A stretch of DNA of 64,000 nucleotides from contig CAWABA010000006.1 of assembly GCA_963780185.1 (NCBI GenBank), forward strand, positions 64,001 to 128,000, read 5' to 3'. Numbering within the stretch: position 1 is the stretch's first letter; the number at the start of each line of letters is the position of its first letter. The notes beneath the pieces are model-generated. The model was not told the DNA's origin. It was given only the letters and a program-made list of their open reading frames with translations, and did not search any database. This document shows positions 4,307 through 31,840 of this stretch, piece by piece. This DNA is from Candidatus Bathyarchaeota archaeon (lineage in GTDB: Archaea; Thermoproteota; Bathyarchaeia; Bathyarchaeales; Bathycorpusculaceae). Both the position numbers and the translations under genes were made by a program.

Positions 4307-6362
4307 TTAGTTTAGGTTTACTTCTGCGATTTGCGTCAGGTCGCTTAGGTTGGTCAGTTTGACTTCGCTGTTTGCGATCGTGTACAGTGTGTTGCCGATG
4401 TAGAGTGCGCGTGTTATTGGTCATTTTGGTTGTCGTATGTAGTAGAAGCCTGAGTTTTCGTTTATGAATCCGTCGTTGCCAAGCATCGTCGCGTTGAGGT
4501 TCGTCACTGTGCCTCTAAGTGTGAATCCGCTTGTGGAGTCAACTTTGAAGACGTATGCTCCCTGCCACATTTCTGAGTTCATAATGATTGCTGGCGGGCT
4601 AACCACAGGCGTAGATCCTGTGAAGACCTACTTTGGCGGGCACTGGAACTGTGGAGTTGTTGGATTCTGTGTAGGTTTGTATCATAGTTTTTATTGAAAC
4701 GGGGATGACTAAGAGCTGCTTCTCCAGGCTGAAGAGGAACGCGTGTGGGTCGTTTTGGGCGGTTGACGAGGTGTAGTTGCCTGCGACGACGTAGTTTGCT
4801 ACTTCCGTTGGGTTGTTTATGTTTGAGACGTCGAAGAGCGAGAGCTTAAGGTTGATGTTTTCGTTTCCGTTGACGATAGTGGTTTGCGACCCTACTCCGA
4901 TAACGTGGTTTGCGTCATACGGGTAAAGGTAGCTTGAGTAACCTGGGATTTTCAGTTCGCCAGCAACTCTGGGTGCCTGCGGGTTGCTGAGGTCAATTAC
5001 GAAGAACGGGTCAGTTTGATGGAACGTTACAAGGTAGCATGTGTCGCCTATGAAGCGGGCGGCATAGATGTTTTCTCCTGGCGCCATGTTTTCCAGTTTG
5101 CCGACAATGGTCATATTCATGTTGAGCACGTAAAGGTTGTTTTGCTGGTTTTGATTGAACGAATGAACCCGAGCTTGTGGTGGTTGCCACTCTAAAGTAG
5201 CCGTTGTATTCATCCATGGAGTATTGGTTGATGATGTAGCCTGGCACTGAACCTTTGGCTTGGAAGGTTAGGTTTTGCCCGCTGATTCCTACTCGGTAGA
5301 TTGCTGTGTCTTGGCCGTTTCGGGGCAGGTTATGTACATGTTGTTTTGCGAAACGTACATGTTGCTTGTGCCGCCCATCATGATAGTCATGTTTGAAGGC
5401 GCCTGAGAAGCGTCTGACAGGTTCAGGCCGACAAAGGTGGTGTAGGTGAAGTAGGTGTTGTTTAGGTCAGTGTAGTAGATGCTTGGAGGCATAATGGTGG
5501 AGGATATAGCGTTGTTGTAGACGGTTGGCAAAACAACGTGTGCCGTTGTATAGGTTTGCGGGTTGGCTGATAACAACGTAAACTTCGTTGCCTATCATTC
5601 TGGAGTCAAAGTAGCTGCCGCTCATCGTATAATTGTATGCCAGAATTGGCGATGCCTTGTTCGTCACATCAAAAATGTAGACAAAGCTTGAAACCCCATA
5701 ATTAGCGTACCCAGGGTAATAGGGCAGTTTGAACCACCCGCAATCATAACCATCGGGTAAACAATCATGTTGGCGTAGTTGCTTCCCACAACCACCAAGG
5801 TATTGCCGTTTTGGCTCAGGTACATGCCAGCCAAACTGGTGTTGTTGCCCAAAGCAATCTTTGAAACCACCGCTGGGTCCTGCGGATTAGCGTTTACAAT
5901 GTAAACGTTATTTTGGGATTGCGCAGCCCAATCCTGATTTATCGTGTAGAGGTATTGCCCGTCAGTTTTAACTGTGTCAGCTTCATCTACCCCTGCAACT
6001 TGAACGTTGGTTGTCGAGTAACTGATATTGGTTTCCGCTGGAAGTCCCCGTGGTTGACGCGGCTGCTGGCGCAAGCGCATTTGTCGGGCTTGCACGTTTC
6101 GTACTGTGTAGTATTGGGAATCTAAGGGTCCGCCTGTGAAGTTGCTGGCGGCGTTGGCGTTAGCTGCAAGGAAATTTTTCATTTCAGTGATGGAGCTGAA
6201 GACTTTCAGGGGCGAAACATTTGCGGTTGAAACGAGCACTGTTGTTGGGTTGCTAATGGTGTAGATTGCCGAAACCAGTACGATGGCTGAGAGTATTGCG
6301 ATTAATGCGTAGATTCTTGTTTTCTTCTTTATTTCTTTTTGAACCATACTTTTTATCTCCAT
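4307..6362 (-). CDS. Membrane-anchored beta-propeller domain protein (Beta_propel family), multiple frameshifts
   Basis: N-terminal TM helix, YSTTNVQVAGVDEADTVKTDG, NQYSMDEYNGYFRVATT, GENIYAARF...TDPFFVIDLS, GELKIPGYSSYL, spread over ORFs 5664..6362, 5467, 5289, 5011, 4599 and 4421. Confidence 0.85.
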
Positions 6363-6421
6363 TATAGGTATATTGGCGCTTGTTATTTGATGCTAAGCAC
6401 GCGAACAGCCTGTTCTAAATG

Positions 6422-6865
6422 TTAGAATGGGCGCATGTTCCATACTCGATAAGCCTCATACCAGAAGATGGTGCAGACGATTGCTCCGAACGAAAGTATG
6501 AACAGGTTGTTGCGGGTGAAACCGTCGAACAGAACCGCGACGTAGAGAGCGAGAAACACGGTTGAGAACAGGGCGTAGAAGAAGTATCTTGGGAAAAGCA
6601 GCCTGCCCAACTTGACAAAGTGGCGAACCACGCCGATTTTTACTTCACCAACCAGCAGGTAGCGACCGCTAACCTCCTCTTTCTGCACCAAACCCAACTC
6701 ACGCAGCTGCTCCAAATGATGAAACGCGATGCTGGGACTGCTAAAATGAAGGGCACGCTGAACTTCGCGGACGCCTGCCGGCGCTGCCGTTTTTAAGCAA
6801 AAACCAGTAAACTTGCCATGCTTTGCCTCGTAACGAGTACTCAAGCTCGGTTCCATCGCTTCCAT
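6422..6865 (-). CDS. ArsR-like winged-HTH regulator with C-terminal transmembrane helices
   Basis: GVREVQRALHFSSPSIAFHHLEQLRELGLV followed by two hydrophobic helices. Confidence 0.75.
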   Translation of the reverse strand: MEAMEPSLSTRYEAKHGKFTGFCLKTAAPAGVREVQRALHFSSPSIAFHHLEQLRELGLVQKEEVSGRYLLVGEVKIGVVRHFVKLGRLLFPRYFFYALFSTVFLALYVAVLFDGFTRNNLFILSFGAIVCTIFWYEAYRVWNMRPF

Positions 6866-7037
6866 TCAATCAGCTGAACCTCAACGGGAACATACAGGGA
6901 GTGGCATATAAGTCCAAGCATTAGAACAGAACAGCAACGACTCTTTTTGAAAGAGGAGCAAGTGAATTAAAGTTTAGAACACTCCTTTGTTCTTGCCAGC
7001 CGAATTTCCTGCTCCAAGCAGGCTTAAATTTTCTGTT

Positions 7038-7598
7038 TTAGGCAATTAAGGCTGGGAGAAGTTCATCTGGAATAAAGCTGTCGTTCGAGCTTCCCTCGTA
7101 AAAGTACAGTTGGCGGTAAGAAACGTCCCAAGGTTGGCCTCTCTGCGCATCCACTACTCTAAATACGCCTTGGCTTGTTTGCAGTGAAAGCGAAATAATG
7201 AATCTTGTGCTGTTGACTATTGTGAAGTGGGCCTCGACATTTTTTTCTTGGTGCCCGCCGAGAGTAAACGCAAATTTAGCTGCTGAATTGCCGACCTGCT
7301 GATAGGGCATCGGGGTATCCGTCGAGAAGGAAGCACCGTTGAAAGTGACGGTGATTTCGAAGGTTGCGGGCATGAAGCCGCTGTTTTTGCAGCCGATGGG
7401 GATAAAACAGCCATTTACTGACGCATTGGTCGCGTAGTTGATGGTTACCCAGTTACCGGCGACCTTTTGATATTTGTAGTTTGTATCAATCCAGAAATCT
7501 ACATCCGGCATTATGAATAACCAAAAAATGGAGCTTCCCGCCACGGTGGCAATCAAGATGATGGCTGCCGCCAATAAAGCCGCCCGCCTCTTTTTCAT
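7038..7598 (-). CDS. Hypothetical membrane-anchored or secreted protein
   Basis: MKKRR plus hydrophobic N-terminus, beta-rich remainder. Confidence 0.65.
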   Translation of the reverse strand: MKKRRAALLAAAIILIATVAGSSIFWLFIMPDVDFWIDTNYKYQKVAGNWVTINYATNASVNGCFIPIGCKNSGFMPATFEITVTFNGASFSTDTPMPYQQVGNSAAKFAFTLGGHQEKNVEAHFTIVNSTRFIISLSLQTSQGVFRVVDAQRGQPWDVSYRQLYFYEGSSNDSFIPDELLPALIA

Positions 7599-8008
7599 GC
7601 CTTTTCCTCAACGTTTCCCCTATGGGGTTCGCTGTTCACTTAAATCTAATGTTTAGAACAACTGATGCACCAAACCCGTCCGTGCAAAACATCTTTGCCC
7701 AAAGCCAACCCATTTGAAGCAAGGTTTTGTCTTTTCAGGTTTAATGTCCCGCTGTGCTGTATAGGACGCGGTTGCCGCATTTCTGGCATTCATAATAGAT
7801 TATTATTTTTTGGCTGTTGCGTACAGGCTTCATTTTCTCGTAACAATCTGGGCAAAGAATTTTTCGGTTGGCAGGCTTAGGGTTCATAAAATCTAACCTG
7901 TTCGCAGTCGATATAACTTTTACCTAAAAAAGCCTTTTTTTTATCTAAAACAAACAAAGAAAAAAGATAGAATGGGGGGAGGAGGGAAGAACCGCTTTGT
8001 TGCGTTCT

Positions 8009-8662
8009 TTAAGTTTGGGTTTTGTTGGCTGTTTGGCCCGTGGGCATTCCTGGGGGTAGGTCTGGGAAGTTTTGGCTGACTCTTTGTTCTGCGACGGTTG
8101 CTGCTTCAGATAGGATTTTTGCTGCGTCTTCGTTTACGTTCTCGAAGTTCAGTGACATTCCGCTGCTTGTTCCTGCTTCAAACATTAAGCCGCTTAGCAT
8201 GTCGCCGATGCTGCCGAGTTCGCCTTCTGCTTCAGGCAAAACACCGCCAAGTCCAGTGCTGACACTGCGCAATACGCCTATGCATGGCCCCAAAGTTGCG
8301 ACGACGTCGCCCAGTTCCGAGACAGTTTTTATGCGTAGCGAAATTTGGTCGAGTGCAAGCCTTGCGTTCATGATGATTTTTCCCATCTTGCGTATTTCAG
8401 CCAATTCGGTTGCGTAGATGTTGGCGTGGGGTGTGTCGTGGTGTGTGTATGCATCGACTAGTTTGGCGAATAATGCTCTGTCTTTCTGTGTGAAGCGGTC
8501 GTTTGCTTGGTCAAGCTTGGCGATTTGCATGTCTAATTTTCTAACAGCCATGTCCAATGCGGGTTTCAGCGGCGGGGGTGGTGTAATTGTGTTTTTTATG
8601 GTTGTGCCGAATGATTCTCCTTCTTTTTTCTGTTCCCATTTCTTAGCGAAATTTTCAGACAT
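8009..8662 (-). CDS. Snf7 / ESCRT-III (CdvB-like paralog)
   Basis: Helical core IYATELAEIRKMGK...LDQISLRIKT, AAKILSEAA and a Pro-rich C-terminus FPDLPPGMP. Confidence 0.8.
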   Translation of the reverse strand: MSENFAKKWEQKKEGESFGTTIKNTITPPPPLKPALDMAVRKLDMQIAKLDQANDRFTQKDRALFAKLVDAYTHHDTPHANIYATELAEIRKMGKIIMNARLALDQISLRIKTVSELGDVVATLGPCIGVLRSVSTGLGGVLPEAEGELGSIGDMLSGLMFEAGTSSGMSLNFENVNEDAAKILSEAATVAEQRVSQNFPDLPPGMPTGQTANKTQT

Positions 8663-8940
8663 GTTAACATCCTTCGTTGTGTTTCATGCAGCGGAAGCCG
8701 CTTTTAATTGTTTTTAACATGCGCATATATATGTAGAAAGAAAAAACGGTTTTTTTGGCGAATTTCTAAACTGCGCCTCGCTAAAGTAGAGTAATTTGCA
8801 ACTTTTAGGCAGACAGCTTTGCATCTTGCAGGTTTTTTGCTATCCTTAAGATTGGTTTTGCGGTAATTACTTTGGGAAATCGGGTTTGGGAAACATTAAA
8901 ATGATATATGGCGTCCTATCTTAGCATGCGTTAGCTTACG

Positions 8941-10246
8941 GTGAACTGCTTGAGTGACAATTACGCACCTTTAGTCGGGGACAATTACGCTCCTGAAAAA
9001 ATCCGTGTAATCATACCTGTCGGCGGAAAAGCAACGAGGCTGCTGCCGTTGACGGCTGAAACAAGCAAAGCCTGCCTGCGTTTGCTTAACAGGCCGCTGG
9101 TTGAGTTTTCGCTTCTGTCGCTGGCAAACCAGGGCATACGCAACTTTATCTTCGGCGTGAAAGGCTACACGAACTACCGCGACCTCTACGACTACTTCGA
9201 GTCAGGCTACGGATTCAGCGCACGCTACAACATCAAACCGCGAATCCACATTAAATATCAGCCTAACGTGGACGATTTAGGAAGCGCAGACTCCGCCAGA
9301 ATAAACATGGATTACTATGAGCTCAGCAACCCCGTTTTTGCAGTTCAGGGCGACAACATCTTCGACGTTAACCTGAAAAGTCTCATTGACTTCCACAGGG
9401 AAAAATGCTCCACCCTAACCATCGTCCTGCGCGAGGTCGACAACGTCGAAGGCTTGGGCATAGCTGACATTGACAAGACACGGCCGCATTTGCCGCTTCG
9501 TCGAAAAACCCAAACCGAAAGACGCACCCAGCAACCTAGCCAACACGGGACTGTACGTGCTTTCGCCCGAAGTGAAGAAGATCTTCAAGGAGAAGGGCAT
9601 CCAACAAATCGTCAAGGAGAAAAACCGTTTAGACTTCGGTTATGACTTCATTCCCTACGTTATCGAGACCGGACGCCCAGTTTACGGCTACACGCTGAAA
9701 GGCAACTGGTTCGACGTGGGCACACCCAAAAGCTACTTGGACGCCATGAAGAAGCTGCTGTACGGCGGCTTCCCCGCCATAAGCGATTTCGGAGGACGCT
9801 TAGATGACGGAAGCCTCGTATGGGTACAGGGCGAAAGCGGCGACTCAACAAAGCGCAGGCAAGAAATCATCCAGAAGATCAAGCAGAAGAAAATCACCCT
9901 TGAAGGCGCGGTCTTGATCGGCAGGCACTGCGAAATCGACGACGGCGCAAGAATCGTTGATAGCTGCATCGACAACTTCACCAGAATAGGCAAGAACGCT
10001 TTGGTGGTTAACTCATCCATTATGGACAGGGTAATCGTGGGCGAACACGCTGAAGTCTACGACAGCATCGTGGGAAGGCACGTAGTTATCCACTCGAGCC
10101 AGCGTTGCCAAACCAAAATCTCAGGCGTCTCCGTCATAGCCGACGACGTCACGCTGGAAGAAGGCTGCAGCATCGTAGCCTCAAAAATCTACCCACACCA
10201 AACAATAAGGGGCGAATTCCAGAACCAAACAATAATAGCGAATTAA
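8941..10246 (+). CDS. NDP-sugar pyrophosphorylase (mannose-1-phosphate guanylyltransferase-like), frameshift near 9480
   Basis: VGGKATRLLPLT, FVEKP, WFDVGTP and C-terminal hexapeptide repeats. Confidence 0.85.
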
Positions 10247-23242: not shown

Positions 23243-24322
23243 TTAGGGTACAGGGTCGATTTTAATTTTTTCCGTATTCACGGCAGTTGTTAACGCGGGT
23301 TTTAGCTCAAGCCATTGCTGCGCTCCAAAGCCTATGATGAAAAATATCCAGAGGGTGATGATTCTTGTGAGTATGGTGGCTGTGGCAGCCATTGCTCCTG
23401 GGATGCCCATCGAAATGTAAAGTGTCGTCATTACTGCCTCGGGAAGCCCAACTTCAAAAGGTATGCCCACAGGAATCGATTTGACAGCTAAGAATATGGC
23501 TGAAGTGACAATAATTATGCTTATTGAAACCGGGTAATCCAGCGATTGAAAAACAAGATACGGGATGGCTAGGCTGAAAAACCAGGAAATAAGCAAGTAG
23601 GACAACGAAAAAGCTATAGCTCTGGGGTTATGACGGAACTCCTTCATTGAATCGTGAAAATGATCTGTAATCTCGATGCCTTCTTCTTTCAATTTTTCCA
23701 GCTTTATTTTTCCTCTACTGATTTTCCGTGCAAAACCCGTTACCCAATTAATCCCTTTTAAGGTCCATTCCCGCTTCAACGACAAAATTCCCATCAGAAC
23801 AAGTATCCCAACGATTACAACCGCGACGAAAATGATCAGATTAAAAACAACGGGATTAACGTTGCCTCCGAAAGTAAGCAACACTAACCCTGCGACTAAT
23901 GCAACAGCGTTTATGGCGGTGCCGAGGAACCTGTGAGTGTAAAGTGACGCAACAACTTTGCCGAATGAGCCGCATCCGTCCCTTGTAAGCAAATATGTTC
24001 GGGTAACCTCTCCGCTGATGGATTGCGCTGGAACAATCGTATCAACATACATGCCGTACCAAACATAGAGGTAAGCACGAACCAAACTCATCTTGATGGA
24101 AAGATGATTAGTCAAAACCTTCCACGAAACCGTGAAAAACAAAACCTGAAACAAACCGAAAACGATGGCAACTGAGTAAATTAACGGGTCAGCTTTTTTT
24201 GCCGTGGCAAAAATGCCGAAAATGTCCACTTTGAACAGATAAATATAAAGGAAAAAACCAAATAACCCCAACAGAGGAAAAATCACCGTTTTCCACGTAA
24301 ACTTCATCTTGGGAAGTTGCAT
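23243..24322 (-). CDS. UPF0104 / lysylphosphatidylglycerol-synthase-TM (flippase-like) membrane protein
   Basis: Multi-TM, VPAQSISGE, IPVGIPFEVGLPE, LTRIIT. Confidence 0.75.
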   Translation of the reverse strand: MQLPKMKFTWKTVIFPLLGLFGFFLYIYLFKVDIFGIFATAKKADPLIYSVAIVFGLFQVLFFTVSWKVLTNHLSIKMSLVRAYLYVWYGMYVDTIVPAQSISGEVTRTYLLTRDGCGSFGKVVASLYTHRFLGTAINAVALVAGLVLLTFGGNVNPVVFNLIIFVAVVIVGILVLMGILSLKREWTLKGINWVTGFARKISRGKIKLEKLKEEGIEITDHFHDSMKEFRHNPRAIAFSLSYLLISWFFSLAIPYLVFQSLDYPVSISIIIVTSAIFLAVKSIPVGIPFEVGLPEAVMTTLYISMGIPGAMAATATILTRIITLWIFFIIGFGAQQWLELKPALTTAVNTEKIKIDPVP

Positions 24323-25160: not shown

Positions 25161-25570
25161 CCATATATTTTGGTTCTAAGACAAAACTACAAGCTCTCTA
25201 CACTTAAGTTTTTCGCTTCACCAATTCCCAACCAACCCCAAAAATTTTACCACCCATTTCCAATACACTTCCAAGCACCACCTTCACCCATGAAAACCTC
25301 GGCTCTCACGTCAACAAGGCAGAACACAGCTTTCTTTGTAAAACTAAAGGAAAATCACTAAAGACAAAGTATGTGCGACTACCCAATTGGATGTTTAGTC
25401 CAGCTTTATCGGGTGATTCAACTTGTCCCCTCTGAAGAGACGTCCAGTGTCAAATAAGGGAAAAAATGCTCGCTGAAATATTGAAATTTAAGCATTTGAT
25501 TAAATATTTTTTTATTATTGAACATTGTTTTAGGTGAACTGTATTGTTGTTGTACGTATATGCCTAGTCC

Positions 25571-25578
25571 TTATATAT
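25571..25578 (+). promoter_or_regulatory. Candidate TATA box for the peptide transcript
   Basis: TTATATAT in an AT-rich intergenic region about 190 nt upstream of the peptide ATG. Confidence 0.4.
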
Positions 25579-25765
25579 TACAAGTTACGATATGCTATAT
25601 CAAAGCAGGGGATCAACGCCAACGTCACCACCCAAACTGCCGCTGGCGTAACATTTGCAACATAGATTGACAGGGAATAACTGCTCAGTTGGGTCAGTGT
25701 ATCTATGAAACTCCCAATTGGAAGAACCCAAACAATAATCGGTTAACTCGGGAAGAGGTGATGCA

Positions 25766-25822
25766 ATGAGCAAGAAAGCTATCAGAGCCAAAGGCAACAT
25801 ATACTGGGGCGGATGGGGTTAA
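25766..25822 (+). CDS. 18-aa putative precursor peptide MSKKAIRAKGNIYWGGWG
   Basis: GAGGTGA at 25755-25761, ATG at 25766, TAA at 25820-25822, oligo-T tract immediately downstream. Too short for the ORF track. Confidence 0.7.
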   Translation: MSKKAIRAKGNIYWGGWG

Positions 25823-25839
25823 TTTTCCCAACCGAACCA

Positions 25840-25860
25840 TTTTTCTTTTTTTCTTTTTTT
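25840..25860 (+). terminator. Archaeal oligo-T terminator after the peptide ORF
   Basis: TTTTTCTTTTTTTCTTTTTTT. Confidence 0.6.
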
Positions 25861-25906
25861 AGAAAAAACCTAAATTCGATAAACATCAAAAGGAAAGCGT
25901 ATTGAT

Positions 25907-26902
25907 ATGACTTACAACTCACTAACCGACCATGCTTTAGATATAATTCGCCTTCATGGGAAACAGGTTTTGGATCAGGCTTGCCGAAAAATCCTTGAGT
26001 CTGACTACGGCGACGAAGCATTAAACGCCGCCATGAAGTATTATGCTCAGTCAACTCTTCAAAATGTCCTGCCGATTTTTCCCACCCTGATACATGTTTC
26101 CTGCGCTGCCGTAGGCGGCAACCCAGAAAAAACAAAATCTTTAGCCACTCCGATGATGCTAATTACCGCTTCAGGCGACATCCACGACGACATCATTGAC
26201 AAATCAAAACGGAAACTTCGAAGAAAAACGGTTTTCGGCAAATACGGAAAAGAAATGGCTATTCTTGTAGGAGACACCTTCTTAATCGAGGGAGTCACGC
26301 TTCTAAACAACGTCTGCGGCGACTTGCTGAGTGAGCAGAGAAAAACTATTTTCGATTTGGTAGAGAAATCAATGTTCGAAAGCATTAAAGCAGAGTTGGT
26401 TGAAACCCGATTGTGGAAGACGCCAGAAGTGACGCCTCAGGAGTATTTTGAAGTCCTCAAAATGAAAGGGAGCGTGGCTGAACTTCAATGCAGAGTAGGT
26501 GGAATAGTTGGGTGCGCCAACGGGAACGCTCTTTCTGAAATAGCGCGTTATGGCAGAGTAATTGGCATTTTGTCATCGGTGAAGGATGAATTTATGGATA
26601 TGAACAACTTTCCCGAGCTTAAACACCGCCTCAAACATGAATTGCCGCCCTACCCAGTCATTTACGCACGTCAAAACAAACTGTTAAGAAAAAAAATAGA
26701 TCCACTTATCAACAGGAAGGAGCCACTGAAAAAGAATCTTCAACTCATGGCTGATTTAGTCCTAAATTCCAAGGAAATTCAAAAGTTGAAGGCTGAGCTG
26801 GCGGAGTTGGGACAAAAGGAACTCAAAGAGAATTCTCTTTTGAAGGCTGAAAAAGGGAACGAGGCAGCGATTTTGCTTCAAGCCTTAGCTTGCGAAATGT
26901 AG
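25907..26902 (+). CDS. Divergent class I isoprenoid-synthase-fold (polyprenyl synthetase family) protein, possible ComQ-like peptide prenyltransferase
   Basis: First Asp-rich motif IHDDIID and KTVFGKYG...AILVGD are present. The GKRxRP motif is absent and the second Asp-rich motif is degenerate (SVKDEFMD). Confidence 0.85.
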   Translation: MTYNSLTDHALDIIRLHGKQVLDQACRKILESDYGDEALNAAMKYYAQSTLQNVLPIFPTLIHVSCAAVGGNPEKTKSLATPMMLITASGDIHDDIIDKSKRKLRRKTVFGKYGKEMAILVGDTFLIEGVTLLNNVCGDLLSEQRKTIFDLVEKSMFESIKAELVETRLWKTPEVTPQEYFEVLKMKGSVAELQCRVGGIVGCANGNALSEIARYGRVIGILSSVKDEFMDMNNFPELKHRLKHELPPYPVIYARQNKLLRKKIDPLINRKEPLKKNLQLMADLVLNSKEIQKLKAELAELGQKELKENSLLKAEKGNEAAILLQALACEM

Positions 26903-27081
26903 CCTAGACGCCTGAGTTTGCTTTTGGACAGGTTCGCTCGTCGACTTTTTGTTTTCCGCCCTTTTTCTTCCTCCACTGGATTGAACCTGTTGACTGGATT
27001 CAAAATATGGATTCAAACCTTAAATTTTGGCTTCTTAAAACTTAACTATTTTTTCACAGTACAACCGTTCCATGGATACCG

Positions 27082-28452
27082 ATGCCACTTAGCGGATTTA
27101 ACGTGAAGCTCGGTTCAGAGTCAAAGGATCTGTTAGTGGGCACTTTTCTGGTGGCAAATGCTTTTGTTTGGTATCTGAGTGCTTTTAGGTTTTTGTGGGG
27201 CGACTTCGCTGGCAATTCGTTGTTGGCGGTAATTTCCGTTAACGTTGTGTGTCTAATAATTACCGCTTTCTTTGTGACATTGCTAATGAATCGGTTCAAG
27301 CAGCGCCTAGTTTTTTTGAAATATTGGATTCTTGCGGGAATATTGCTCTCAGTGTCTTATGCATTTCTGGATTTTACTAATATTCTAAGCTCCATTATTG
27401 CATCGGGTTTTCTAGGGTTTTATTTTGGGGTAGGTATGCCCATCTGCATGGGGTATTTCGCTGCAACCAGCAAGTCTGAAAATCGGGGTAAGTCAGGCGC
27501 GATAATAATTCTCATGATAGGCTTTGGCTTTCCAATCCTTACTACCATCGGAGGTTCACAGAACCTTGTAATAGCTACCGCGTTAACGGCATGGCGATTT
27601 TTGGCTTTGGGCAGCTTATTTGTTTTTAAGCCCCTCGATAGAACGGCGGAGACTAAAAACGCGGTTTCTTATCGTTCGGTTATTGGAAACAAAACTTTCC
27701 TGTTGTATCTTGTTCCCTGGTTTATGTTTGTTCTCATAAATGAATTGGCGATGCAAATCAATGCGGATTACTTCAGCAAATTGTCCCAAGCCTTTTCCAA
27801 CAACTATTTAATTATAGAAAATGTTCTTTCAGGAATTTCCGCGGTTGTCTGTGGCTTTTTGGCTGACAAGAAGGGGAGAAAACGGATTGCTTTATTCGGT
27901 TTTGCACTTTTGGGTATAGGATATGCCGCTCTTGGTCTCTTCAACTCGGGCAATGTTGCAGGCAATGTTGCTTCGATTGCGGCTTGGTTTTACGTTTGTG
28001 CAGATGGAATAGCTTGGGGTGCTTTTGCCATGCTTTTCTTAGTTACAATTTGGGGGGACATAGCGCATGAGCGGAATAGTGAGAAATATTATTTCGTCGG
28101 TGTCCTTCCGTACTTAATTTCTAATTTGGCAGGTCACATGATGGGGTCGGTTATTTCAAAAAACATCTTGGACGACTCAGTTGGTACCGTTTTCTCTTTT
28201 GCAAGCTTCTTCCTATTCATCGCCATCTTGCCGCTGGCTTATGCCCCTGAAACCTTGTCTGAGAAAATCATGAGCAGGCTGGACATCAGCGACTACGTCG
28301 CCAAGGCTCTTGAAAAAGTCAAGAAGGAGGATTCGAGAAAACCGCAGGTACAAGCGGCGGCAGAGGAAAACGAAGAAAGTCAAGAACGGTCTTTAGGCTC
28401 ATCGCTGGAAGACGCTGAAGCAAAGAAACTGGCGGAAAAATACTACTATTGA
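27082..28452 (+). CDS. MFS transporter
   Basis: About 12 TM helices, GFLADKKGRKR motif A, APETL and a charged C-terminal tail. Confidence 0.85.
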   Translation: MPLSGFNVKLGSESKDLLVGTFLVANAFVWYLSAFRFLWGDFAGNSLLAVISVNVVCLIITAFFVTLLMNRFKQRLVFLKYWILAGILLSVSYAFLDFTNILSSIIASGFLGFYFGVGMPICMGYFAATSKSENRGKSGAIIILMIGFGFPILTTIGGSQNLVIATALTAWRFLALGSLFVFKPLDRTAETKNAVSYRSVIGNKTFLLYLVPWFMFVLINELAMQINADYFSKLSQAFSNNYLIIENVLSGISAVVCGFLADKKGRKRIALFGFALLGIGYAALGLFNSGNVAGNVASIAAWFYVCADGIAWGAFAMLFLVTIWGDIAHERNSEKYYFVGVLPYLISNLAGHMMGSVISKNILDDSVGTVFSFASFFLFIAILPLAYAPETLSEKIMSRLDISDYVAKALEKVKKEDSRKPQVQAAAEENEESQERSLGSSLEDAEAKKLAEKYYY

Positions 28453-28728: not shown

Positions 28729-29763
28729 ATGTCTGAAGATATTTGGGTTCCAATGGATGGAGACACCTTTGTCACTAAAGACGGCTTCATCCTTAACACC
28801 TTCGGCTACGAACATCCCGACGACCGCGTATTCGCGTTCCTAAAGTACATTCCCGCCCAGTACAGGGAACTCTTCAATGTGGAAATGCTGGAACGCACCT
28901 GGAAGTTCGGCGGCAATCAGCTTTTCAGGGCTGAAAAACTCTACACGGCAAAGAATTATCAGACCTTCATCGAGGCGTTCCGCAAAAACTTCCCCGACTA
29001 CCTCTACTTCTGCCCCTTCCGCAACAAAGAACTAATCACCGCGCCGTTTGACCGCATAGAGCAGGTTTTTGTTCCCAAAGACCGATTGGTTTGGCTGACG
29101 AACCTGCCGAAACGCGACAAACTGCAGCAGATGGCGCTTGACCTCATCAATTTAATCTCTAAAGAATCAGGCGTCGACCTATGCGACCTTGGGAATTCAC
29201 GGCTCAATTGCCCTGCAGATGCATGCGCCCGAATCCGACATCGACTTTGTCGTTTACGGCACCGAAAACTTCCGCCAAGTTGAAGAAGCAATCGCGCGGC
29301 TTGTTAATGCTGGAAAACTCACCTACATCGTGGGCAACCGCATTGAAGCCGCAAGAAAATTCCAAGGAAGGTACCAAGGAAAAATCTTCATGTACAACGC
29401 CACCAAAAAACCTGAGCAAATCAAGGAAAAATATGGCGCTTACCGCTACGTCCCGCTTGACCCAGTAAGATTTGAAGCCACCGTCAGCGACGACACGGAA
29501 ACCATGTATCGTCCCGCAGATATACGGGATTTCGGGTTACAAGCCTTTGGATGACCAGTCTGAACTTGAATTAGACAAGATACCTCTCGCAAGTTGTTTC
29601 AAACATTGGGCTTTACCGAAACGTTGCAAGGTGCGGCAGCACAATCAGGGTTTCTGGCAAACTTGAACGGGTCGAATCTACAACTTCGAGCGAGGTTCAT
29701 TATCAGGTGGTTGTTGGAACAGCTACGTCAGAGGAAGAATACATTTGGCCAGTAATAGCGTAG
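28729..29763 (+). CDS. Predicted nucleotidyltransferase (COG1665-like), paralog 1, frameshifted
   Basis: DGDTFVT...FGYEHP and GIHGS...[10 protein letters not shown]. Ends EEYIWPVIA with TAG at 29763. Confidence 0.75.
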
Positions 29764-30824
29764 CGCTGCGGGACCGCGACGCCATCGAAACCGCTGAAGG
29801 CTTAATCTTCCGTGTCTTCGGCTACTCGCATCCGCCAGCCGCCTACATCTGCGACGCCGAGTATGCTTCATCAAAAATTTTCCAGTCAAAAGACCCCCGA
29901 GCGCCGCGAGAAGGCAAAGGGCAGCTTTACTTTAAATTCTACAACGACGAAGGCATGAAACTCGTCTACAAAAAGTACCCGCAGTACCAAGTTTTCCACG
30001 AAATGCTCGGGCTAAACCTTGTCGGAGTAAAAAACGGCGACATCGCCGAAGCCAGAAAACCCGAGGTGCGACTGCAAAAGCTGCTTGACGCGGGTCCAAC
30101 AGATGAGTTGTTGGCAGCTATGGAGCGGGTCCTTATGATATCGCTCAATAATTCAGGGTTGAAAACGGAGAATTTCGGTGTCTTCGGCTCCATGCTGCAT
30201 GGATTTCATCACCCCAAATTTTCAGATATCGACCTGATAGTTTACGGCAAAAAAGAGAACGCCAAAATGCGACGAAACACTCCAAGCCCTGTACGCTGAT
30301 GCCCAGTCTGGTTTTCATAACGAGTTCGAGTCTGACAAAGCCATGGAGGGTAAGGATTGGCGTTTCCAAAACTTTACCGTTGAAGACTTCGTTTGGCATC
30401 AACGCAGAAAACAGATTTACGGGTTATACGATGACAAAGCAAGCGGGCGAACCATTAAAGCCGAGTTTGAACCTGTGAAGGCTTGGAGCGAAATCAAATC
30501 AGAATACGATCCGCGGACGTGCATAACACAGCAGGGGCTGGGTTAAACTTAAAGCGCGCATAACAGCCGACGACGAGGCGCCGTTTATTCCGTCGATCTA
30601 TGGCATTGAGCCTCTGGAGGTTATCAGCGGTCCAAAGGAAGCGTTCGAGGTGCACGAGGGTTTTCTCTTTCATGGAGGAGTTCCGTCAGCAGGCACAAAA
30701 AGACGAAGAAGTCTTGGTTGAAGGGAATCTTGAAGAAGTTATGTCGCCAACTGAACAATTCCACCAGGTCACATTGACTTATTGCCCACGCTACTACGAA
30801 CAAGTCCTCAAAGTGCAGCATTAA
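29745..30824 (+). CDS. Predicted nucleotidyltransferase (COG1665-like), paralog 2, frameshifted
   Basis: RDRDAIET...FGYSHP and GVFGS...FSDIDLIVYG. Continues in ORFs 30343 and 30600. Confidence 0.75.
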
Positions 30825-31840
30825 ATACGCGAGAGAACCATGTAGTCTGACGGTTTGTTCCCAAGGATTAAGCGGTAATGTTCGGTGCCTGTTTTGTTGT
30901 CTGTGACCAATTCAACTTTTCCCTGAGCCTCAATCGTCTCGCCGTTTTCTGCTTGTTCACAGAATCTGCCGCGGAATGAAACAATCTCATCTATTGACGG
31001 CAAGTTGGGTCCTTCAACAATTTGAGTGTCTTGCAGCTTGTAGGAGCAGGGCGTGAAAAGCGAGTCTGCTCCGTCAGCTATTTTGGCAACTATTTTTGCG
31101 TAGCCGCTGTTTTTGAAGCATACGTCTCCGTATTGCTCGCTGATTTCGCGCCAATCCTTCACGAAGCGGATGAAGTAGTCTGTGCCCATGAACTTGCCTT
31201 GGAACGCCTTGCGGCTTTCGACCAAAACGAAATCTTCGAAGCTCATCTGAGTATCCTTCGAACGGAAATCGAAAAGCTCCTGCAGCTCCCCCTCCGTATA
31301 AGCCTTGAACCCTGAATGCTCATCCTCACGAAGCCTTTTGAGAGCAGCGTAAGCGTTTCTGCAGTTTTCCACGCCGTAAACAAGGGGGTCGATGTCTGAC
31401 TTCTCCGTTGTTAACCCAGCCATTATCGAGCCTGAAATGCCTATGCTGCTCCATGGGATGCCTGCTTCTTTTTTGAGGGTTTCCGCCAGCTGCAAGGCTT
31501 TGCTTTCTAAAACGGTGAGGTCTTTGGAGGTGCGTAGTGCCCAGAGTTTTTCTTCAGGCTTGTAGTGCTCAGCCACCTGATCAACAGGAACTTCACACAT
31601 AGTCTCGCCCATTACGGCGTCAAAAACGATGAGGTCAGGGTAATTTTCCTGCAGGTACTTGAATCGGTCGCCCAGACTGTACACTTTGCCGTAAAGGCTG
31701 TCTTTGCCCTGCCGTGTGCCCTGAGGCGAAGGAATGAACCGTGGAAAAGCAACGATTTTTCCCGCTGGATGCGTTAAGCCTTTAACGTCAAAAACCACGC
31801 CGCTTTTCGTTTTGATTAAGTCGCCTTCACGTGCCCTCAC
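30821..31840 (-). CDS. Predicted nucleotidyltransferase (COG1665-like), paralog 3
   Basis: REGDLIKT...KGLTHP, GISGS...KSDIDPLVYG, SFRGRFCEQA...GKVE. Confidence 0.8.
   Translation of the reverse strand: MRAREGDLIKTKSGVVFDVKGLTHPAGKIVAFPRFIPSPQGTRQGKDSLYGKVYSLGDRFKYLQENYPDLIVFDAVMGETMCEVPVDQVAEHYKPEEKLWALRTSKDLTVLESKALQLAETLKKEAGIPWSSIGISGSIMAGLTTEKSDIDPLVYGVENCRNAYAALKRLREDEHSGFKAYTEGELQELFDFRSKDTQMSFEDFVLVESRKAFQGKFMGTDYFIRFVKDWREISEQYGDVCFKNSGYAKIVAKIADGADSLFTPCSYKLQDTQIVEGPNLPSIDEIVSFRGRFCEQAENGETIEAQGKVELVTDNKTGTEHYRLILGNKPSDYMVLSRI

Follow-up and report, generated by a model that had tools for sequence, protein, structure and literature searches.

What is the product of a gene of the isoprenyl diphosphate synthase (IPPS) fold that stands, in an archaeal genome, between a tiny Trp-containing open reading frame (ORF) and a transporter gene? 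The question is raised by a locus in a 64,000-nucleotide stretch of Candidatus Bathyarchaeota archaeon DNA (GenBank assembly GCA_963780185.1, contig CAWABA010000006.1, positions 64,001 to 128,000 of the forward strand), which is called the window below. An 18-codon ORF, a gene for a divergent IPPS-fold enzyme and a gene for a major facilitator superfamily (MFS) transporter follow one another there on the same strand. Judging from their sequences, the region probably encodes a precursor peptide, a peptide Trp-prenyltransferase and an exporter, which would function like the bacterial ComQ/ComX pair and especially like PalQ/PalX. The features of the locus are as follows.

25756..25762, + strand: Shine-Dalgarno-type site GAGGTGA, with a 3-nt gap to the ATG (read from the sequence)
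25766..25822, + strand: candidate precursor peptide ORF of 18 codons, ATG at 25766 and TAA at 25820-25822 (read from the sequence)
25840..25860, + strand: candidate archaeal terminator of the peptide transcript, consisting of three oligo-T runs
25907..26902, + strand: divergent trans-isoprenyl-diphosphate-synthase-fold enzyme of 331 residues (PF00348), candidate peptide Trp-prenyltransferase
27082..28452, + strand: MFS transporter of 456 residues, candidate exporter, assigned from the PF07690 matches of its homologs and a 12-helix model

The micro-ORF and its linkage to enzyme and transporter

The N-terminal half of the window peptide is rich in Lys and Arg. Gly-Gly-Trp occupies residues 15-17, and one extra Gly precedes the stop codon. 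The enzyme gene starts 84 nt 3' of this stop codon on the same strand. The first-pass annotation, made from the letters of the window, had described an 18-codon ORF with a GAGGTGA Shine-Dalgarno site and a basic N-terminal half at this distance from the enzyme gene, and its coordinates and translation are confirmed. The two Trp residues that it emphasized, at −5 and −2, are both present, but the one at −5 is not conserved, being replaced by Phe in 8 of 18 aligned peptides. M1, G15, G16, and W17 alone are invariant across these 18.

The aligned peptides come from 18 distinct orthologous copies of the ORF, each with a GAGGTGA-type site a few bases 5' of the start codon. The copies have 14-19 codons, and their length differences are only in whole codons. 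The Gly codons of the terminal Gly-Gly-Trp vary synonymously among GGC, GGT, GGA, and GGG, and the stop codon (TAA in 16 copies, TAG in 2) directly follows the conserved end. Trp is the final residue in 16 of the 18 orthologs, which end exactly in Gly-Gly-Trp; the window and its nearest relative, locus L034, add one Gly. Nucleotide identity among the 11 copies of equal length is 0.60 within the ORF versus 0.35 in the 54 nt 3' of it. Between the window and L034, the peptide ORF is 95.5% identical at the nucleotide level, and the two adjoining intergenic stretches are 84.0% and 75.3% identical. A similar ORF lies on the same strand 73-210 nt upstream of the enzyme gene in every close ortholog that has upstream DNA. 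The exception is L064, where the ORF is 368 nt upstream of an enzyme gene whose only called start is internal.

The oligo-T runs 3' of the peptide stop codon are T5 at 25840-25844, T7 at 25846-25852, and T7 at 25854-25860. A terminator belonging to the peptide gene itself, as had been suggested, is plausible, but it is not a universal property, since a run of at least five T residues between ORF and enzyme gene is found in 12 of the 18 orthologs. A hairpin-like inverted repeat within the first 40 nt after the peptide ORF, followed by T-rich sequence, is seen in L038, L044, L045, and L046. Read by eye, the letters of its stem differ among these loci and the pairing is seemingly kept.

Relatives of the enzyme were collected for a family-wide comparison. 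In the protein collection, 174 homologs with E values up to 0.001 were found among 2326 candidates, and the best 120 were listed. A class-level search covered 201 genomes, 36 of them with a match at an E value no higher than 1e-30, and contributed 30 loci; species-representative genomes contain 198 stretches that encode a relative, and 79 loci from this search were used. The 109 loci were reduced to 103 by dropping 6 whose enzyme is identical to that of another locus, and then to 94 by dropping 9 enzymes shorter than 280 residues, which are cut by contig ends. At an E value of at most 1e-30, the family comprises approximately 180 clusters of 50% identity. Some sources name the homologs geranylgeranyl, heptaprenyl, or octaprenyl diphosphate synthase, two sources label them as Bathyarchaeia or Bathyarchaeota proteins, and the protein atlas matches are Bathyarchaeota polyprenyl-synthetase clusters alone. 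In a quick maximum-likelihood IQ-TREE run with 95 enzymes, the window enzyme falls in a clade of 27 with 100% support in the Shimodaira-Hasegawa-like approximate likelihood ratio test (SH-aLRT). Three family members from genome bins titled Limnocylindrales, Caldiserica, and Nanoarchaeia (L057, L059, and L102, respectively) group within the Bathyarchaeia sequences of the tree; for these labels, mis-binning seems likelier than transfer.

The flanks of the enzyme genes were scanned for peptide ORFs under two sets of rules. The strict rules called for ORFs of 10-26 codons at most 300 nt away, with a Shine-Dalgarno-like word, at least three Lys or Arg residues, and Trp among the four C-terminal residues. 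Under these rules, a candidate is found in 51 of 95 loci with both flanks, where 0.037 would be expected per 600 nt from a background of 32 ORFs passing the rules over 521 kb of these loci. The relaxed rules allowed two geometries, upstream co-directional and convergent downstream, within 400 nt, and their background was obtained by applying the same rules more than 700 nt from the enzyme gene. A candidate is then present in 78 of the 94 loci with full-length unique enzymes against a per-locus chance probability of 0.20, and in 62 of the 94 against 0.041 when a Shine-Dalgarno-like motif is also required. All 27 members of the window clade have a candidate in the relaxed scan.

The geometry of the candidates should be noted. 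Most members outside the window clade have a tiny ORF on the opposite strand that ends a few bases from the enzyme stop codon. These convergent ORFs are basic and Trp-ended, often with two terminal aromatic residues, and the same form is present in the window-clade members that have no upstream copy. In 29 of the 51 loci positive in the strict scan, the sole candidate is on the opposite strand, convergent with the 3' end of the enzyme gene. Family-wide, the candidate precursors have 12-23 residues. Two geometries of this kind fit a product that acts in trans, not a leader of the enzyme gene. Both co-directional and convergent copies, with the same type of Trp end, are observed in L035, L037, L040, L047, L064, L069, L070, and L082.

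An MFS homolog on the same strand starts at most 700 nt after the enzyme gene in 81 of the 94 loci with at least 1200 nt of downstream DNA. The window transporter itself scores 30.8 bits against MFS_1, just below the cut-off of 33.4, and all 31 homologs scanned match PF07690 (best E 5.8e-21). Its model (predicted local distance difference test, pLDDT, 88.4) has 12 membrane helices, and the Foldseek matches are generic MFS carriers. The combination of a conserved Trp-peptide ORF beside homologous enzymes and an MFS neighbor, which the first-pass annotation had proposed from one locus, is thus recovered across the family (78 of 94 and 81 of 94 loci). Because similar Shine-Dalgarno-led ORFs occur in the close orthologs and the family-wide counts are above background, the 18-codon ORF is a real conserved gene and not a chance ORF. 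The family-wide synteny supports the view that peptide gene, enzyme gene, and MFS gene are a conserved functional unit.

Genomes can carry more than one such module, each with its own peptide type, and there are two in the genome studied here. The second, paralogous one (locus L113, 5959-9616) lies on the same contig approximately 64 kb upstream, with the following genes.

5959-6954: enzyme, 32% identical to the window enzyme
6959-7006: convergent micro-ORF of 15 codons, basic, ending in Thr-Trp
7154-8461: MFS homolog
8486-9616: TIGR04084-type radical-SAM/SPASM gene, 317.7 bits

Two enzyme paralogs in tandem, approximately 230-250 nt apart, are observed in L012 and L017 (genomes G136 and G077, respectively). 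They may form a heteromer or belong to two modules with common partners.

The enzyme and its proposed reaction

The window enzyme matches PF00348 with approximately 65 bits (cut-off 27), and PF00348 is also found in all of the 120 best homologs listed. It matches 14 NCBIfam families without reaching any equivalog cut-off, the best being IdsA_Meth (79.2 versus 468), and neither the ComQ family (IPR033965) nor PalQ is among its Pfam and NCBIfam matches. The AF2 model (pLDDT 94.6) has the all-alpha IPPS fold, with Foldseek template modeling (TM) scores of 0.67-0.82 to solved IPPS structures; the indole prenyltransferase Ord1 ranks 18-25 among them. Complex prediction from enzyme and peptide alignments gave a score of 0.22 (mark 0.32) for a peptide that is below the 30-residue calibration of the method.

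The residues around the active site are informative. The first Asp-rich motif, D-D-x-x-D (D94, D95, and D98, preceded by D91), is invariant in 30 sequences. Motif I, which reads G-G-K-R-x-R-P in the canonical synthase of the same genome, has become L-P-I-F-P in the window clade and, elsewhere in the family, x-[HR]-P. Where the canonical synthase has Phe-Gln ahead of its second motif, the window clade has Ser-Ser/Thr, and the Gln position is occupied by Ala, Thr, Asn, Ile, or another residue outside this clade. Furthermore, a deletion of 6 residues shortens the Lys-rich loop behind the second motif in comparison with the canonical synthase. That synthase is encoded on contig C4 and scores 207.7 bits for PF00348 versus 65.6 for the module enzyme. 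In chain-elongating synthases, isopentenyl diphosphate (IPP) is bound through its diphosphate by basic side chains of motif I and of the loop that follows the second motif. Because the module enzyme has lost these residues but retains the first Asp-rich motif, which binds the donor, it resembles a prenyl transferase that does not elongate chains, as would be expected if its acceptor were not IPP. In the comparison with L034 (one genome pair), its ratio of nonsynonymous to synonymous substitution rates (dN/dS) is 0.18, versus 0.00-0.07 for three flanking genes; the enzyme gene is under purifying selection, looser than that on its neighbors.

On the peptide side, the conserved residue is the Trp at or next to the C-terminus, which matches the acceptor of every characterized IPPS-like peptide prenyltransferase, as far as excerpts of a 2026 review go (PMC13290415). 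In the reaction that we propose, the enzyme would bind an allylic prenyl diphosphate through the retained first Asp-rich motif and Mg2+. Geranylgeranyl diphosphate (GGPP) is our guess for the donor, because archaea make GGPP for their membrane lipids. The vacated IPP site would take the indole of the terminal Trp, as the loss of the basic residues that hold IPP would offer the acceptor site to it, and the indole would be alkylated in the cytoplasm in the manner of ComQ, PalQ, and StheQ. The resulting cationic lipopeptide would be exported by the MFS carrier, export being the predicted direction. In relatives that bear a protease, an extracellular cut after a Lys or Arg would probably free a short prenylated C-terminal fragment. 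The final product may be a signal or a membrane-active antimicrobial.

A wider reading, to which we give slightly less than an even chance, is that Bathyarchaeia have a family-wide class of ribosomal lipopeptides of independent origin, combining leaderless micro-ORFs, Trp prenylation by a catalytic solution other than that of ComQ, PalQ, and Ord1 (without the Gln and with the acidic second motif retained), and MFS export. The donors would then probably be long archaeal ones such as GGPP, and in many modules a secreted trypsin-like protease or a radical-SAM/SPASM enzyme would act on the product as well.

Accessory genes and rival explanations

A gene for a secreted trypsin-like serine protease (PF00089 Trypsin, 42.7 bits) is found in 18 loci. 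In 13 of these, which belong to the window clade, the intact gene stops just short of the peptide ORF; in 5 loci of another clade it is beside the enzyme gene on the other strand, and a basic Trp-terminal ORF lies approximately 0.9-1.0 kb upstream on the protease strand. The N-terminus of the protease reads like a signal peptide. A TIGR04084-type radical-SAM/SPASM gene follows the MFS gene in 47 loci, a count made on many loci with too little downstream DNA to show the gene, and the copy in the second module of this genome exceeds the cut-off of 225 bits. No radical-SAM gene was found in the available downstream flanks of the window, L035, L037, L038, L044, L045, and L046. TIGR04084 is above its cut-off in 130 of 301 Thermoproteota genomes, and no enzyme or MFS gene of the module type lies within approximately 1.5 kb of the TIGR04084 gene in any of the 30 best loci, all of which are outside Bathyarchaeia. 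This observation suggests that the radical-SAM gene is an addition to the module and not part of its core; as a defining part of the module, it is ruled out by these 30 loci.

The window module has neither an intact protease gene nor a radical-SAM gene. Upstream of the peptide ORF, one further feature was noted.

25612..25695, + strand: possible degraded remnant of a gene for a secreted trypsin-like protease (C-terminal part), from a weak tblastn match

The match is to the L038 protease, with 43% identity over 28 residues (E 0.062). The window lineage seems to have lost the protease. The surrounding stretch of approximately 600 nt (25161-25755) is without a long ORF and is 75% identical to the nearest relative.

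A receptor histidine kinase or response regulator of the ComP/ComA type is absent from the ten window neighbors scanned with Pfam, which include a malic enzyme, a GNAT protein, LPG_synthase_TM, an OB-fold Ssb-like protein, CitG, and two ORFs without a family match. The quorum-signal label that the first-pass annotation had attached to the locus accordingly finds no support among these neighbors. The LPG_synthase_TM gene, with an MprF-like membrane domain, is at 23243-24322 on the − strand, 1.4 kb upstream of the module. It is common only to L034, apart from a weak and remote similarity well downstream in L069 (24% identity, E 7e-11), and because it is shared only with the nearest relative we do not count it as part of the module. 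Three paralogs without a Pfam match lie beyond the MFS gene, at 28729-29554, 29745-30546, and, intact, 30821-31840 (− strand); their Gly-Ser ... Asp-x-Asp stretch presumably recalls nucleotidyltransferases. The paralog at 28729-29554 is split by a frameshift, the L035 homolog being a single 353-codon frame directly after the MFS gene, and the one at 29745-30546 also appears split. The split copies may be real pseudogenes or sequencing errors. PadR-type regulator genes, recognized by eye from translations, occur upstream in one paralog clade.

Several points weigh against a peptide Trp-prenyltransferase at this locus. The ORF rules were set after the first examples had been seen, with the background control run under identical rules. 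Sixteen of the 94 loci have no candidate under the relaxed rules (L015, L021, L029, L030, L031, L054, L059, L068, L071, L072, L076, L091, L096, L097, L106, and L110). Looser distance rules give possible candidates farther off in L015, L091, and L106, and looser end rules give possible ones in L029, L096, and L110, whose Trp lies deeper in the peptide or whose start is unclear. The second Asp-rich motif, which had been expected to be degenerate, reads D-E-x-x-D; in the family it is [DE]-E-x-x-D, with the three acidic residues kept as in metal-binding synthases. The conserved Gln of ComQ- and PalQ-type enzymes and of Ord1 is Ser or Thr here, a comparison made indirectly via the canonical Phe-Gln position. 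Fold and profile searches do not separate the enzyme from ordinary synthases. Lastly, the radical-SAM/SPASM maturase could be the real peptide-acting enzyme in the 47 loci that have it. This last point belongs to a serious rival, in which the peptide is a real member of the module and the IPPS-like enzyme prenylates something else, e.g., a small molecule or lipid handled by the MFS carrier, the peptide being matured otherwise, notably by the radical-SAM enzyme, or remaining unmodified, e.g., as a small cationic peptide. The class of the TIGR04084-type gene includes many peptide maturases, and the gene is present even in the paralogous module of this genome; the missing Gln signature, the acidic second motif, and the Foldseek grouping with ordinary synthases also suit this rival. 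However, the window and the six other loci named above keep the trio with no radical-SAM gene found, and core TIGR04084 genes outside Bathyarchaeia have no module neighbors (0 of 30 loci). The loss of the IPP-binding residues also speaks against it, as does the observation that peptide end type and motif I change together between clades, a covariation confounded by relatedness. We rate this explanation as unlikely, at about one chance in a handful. Far less probable is that the enzyme elongates prenyl diphosphates like any ordinary synthase, alone or as a subunit, and has its neighbors by coincidence. The PF00348 match, the synthase names given to homologs, and the tandem paralog pairs in two genomes would agree with it, but the genome has a separate canonical synthase with a much higher score, the enzyme stays far below every equivalog cut-off, it has neither the basic residues of motif I nor the loop behind the second motif, and the synteny is far above chance.

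Two further explanations concern the peptide. It might be a scaffold, from which the prenylated C-terminal residue or residues are cleaved off as a small metabolite derived from prenyl-tryptophan, in analogy to pathways that modify an amino acid on the end of a carrier peptide. Only the last three residues before the end are invariant and the remainder is merely basic, 18 loci combine the peptide ORF with a protease gene, and Ord1, a fold relative, farnesylates free tryptophan (PMC13290415) and indole in assays (PMC12510300), according to excerpts of both papers. The accompanying protease is trypsin-like, however, and its signal-peptide-like N-terminus points to extracellular trimming of an exported peptide. 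Trypsin-like proteases cut after Lys or Arg, not after Gly. With no intact protease in the window besides, we consider the scaffold improbable. Alternatively, the small ORF might be a cis-acting leader (an upstream ORF or attenuator) for the enzyme gene, or a by-product of a T-rich terminator on the other strand. The position of the window ORF, 84 nt upstream on the same strand, and its Trp codons followed by T-runs recall a leader. But leader action is impossible in the 29 strict-scan loci with only a convergent candidate, eight loci have both co-directional and convergent copies, and the amino-acid end is kept through synonymous codon changes. The co-directional copies, in turn, read their Lys and Arg codons from the + strand and cannot be the mirror image of a T-run. 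The leader is ruled out by the convergent copies and the mirror image by the co-directional ones, and we give this pair of explanations next to no weight. The reading as precursor, Trp-prenyltransferase, and exporter is the one that we prefer.

Comparison with known systems

The literature searches turned up no case of archaeal peptide Trp prenylation, and nothing on Bathyarchaeia. Peptide Trp prenylation by IPPS-like enzymes is known from few bacterial systems, as far as the excerpted literature goes, and what would be new here is an archaeal, mechanistically divergent variant. The module is a good candidate for an archaeal system of lipid-tagged ribosomal peptides, which would be the first. 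If the wider reading given above is true, it would be the first archaeal peptide prenylation system, with the first archaeal lipopeptide signal or antimicrobial. If the preferred reading holds, an abundant uncultured lineage of sediment and soil would be credited with a defined chemistry of secreted peptides, as signal or weapon, which would bear on the interactions of these archaea with each other and with bacteria. It would also provide a compact pair of an enzyme of approximately 330 residues and a three-residue tag for peptide lipidation, for which PalQ is already under development, and it would mean that micro-ORFs below the limits of gene callers can be the key to genes annotated as "polyprenyl synthetase family protein."

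In both sequence and fold, the enzyme is closest to canonical archaeal GGPP synthase, for example the copy of this genome or that of P. horikoshii (1WY0, E 7.4e-29, TM score 0.81). The first Asp-rich motif, the following Gly-Asp motif, and the Lys before the second motif are common to both, whereas the motif I basic residues, the Phe-Gln, and the Lys-rich loop are replaced or deleted here. Ord1, an all-alpha indole prenyltransferase of Streptomyces (PDB 9V4G-J), has the same fold (TM score 0.72-0.74, profile E 2.6e-19). It is IPPS-derived and alkylates indole instead of IPP, and for activity it needs both the Gln and the leading Asp of its motif (excerpts of PMC12510300). Unlike the proposed archaeal enzyme, Ord1 acts on free indole or tryptophan, and its catalytic Tyr-Gln pair and D-D-x-x-A motif are absent here.

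The two-component genes of ComQXPA are not seen among the scanned neighbors, and the archaeal module has no long leader and a dedicated MFS gene. The ComQXP locus reportedly diverges faster than its flanking genes, to which the looser selection on the window enzyme in the single genome pair may be likened. The first-pass annotation had called the locus a ComX/ComQ-like cassette. The conserved trio and the non-elongating appearance of the enzyme agree with that description, but the signatures of ComQ, namely the Gln and the pseudo second Asp-rich motif (pseudo-SARM), are absent. ComQ of Bacillus and StheQ of Sphaerobacter are, like the window enzyme, IPPS-fold enzymes with a first Asp-rich motif whose genes adjoin short peptide genes, and ComX and StheX carry their acceptor Trp 2-3 residues from the C-terminus. 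In StheX, the modified Trp is the penultimate residue, which is the geometry of the window peptide, and StheQ has an N-D-x-x-D pseudo-SARM without metal, as described in excerpts of a preprint (bioRxiv 10.64898/2026.08.29.745113). The pseudo-SARM of ComQ and StheQ stands in contrast to the [DE]-E-x-x-D here. Because the Gln and pseudo-SARM signatures are absent, we regard the module as an independent archaeal branch and not as a member of the ComQ or PalQ family; the distinction from ComQ, PalQ, and StheQ is drawn from described signatures.

The excerpted review (PMC13290415) lists ComQ, the P domain of ChrPC, and PalQ as IPPS-like peptide prenyltransferases, all characterized ones acting on Trp, and gives a Gln just before the second motif as common to these enzymes and Ord1 (Q197 in PalQ, Q216 in Ord1, and Q212 in StheQ). 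PalX has a conserved C-terminal Trp and an NHLP leader, and its cluster includes a histidine kinase gene (excerpts of PMC10853753). The bacterial PalQ/PalX system of Paenibacillus alvei differs from the archaeal one in these respects: the whole archaeal precursor is only as long as the 12-23 residues given above, with no large NHLP leader, no kinase is seen among the scanned neighbors, and the conserved Gln by the second motif is missing. The Gly after the Trp in the window peptide should also be noted, as Ala extensions after the Trp abolished PalQ activity in the excerpted account. On the other hand, PalQ, too, is an isoprenoid-synthase superfamily enzyme encoded beside a precursor with a conserved C-terminal Trp. 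According to the same review excerpts, it needs the Trp at the very C-terminus and prefers a preceding Gly, GW and GGW ends being favorable, and Gly-Gly-Trp is exactly the end of 16 of the 18 close orthologs of the window peptide.

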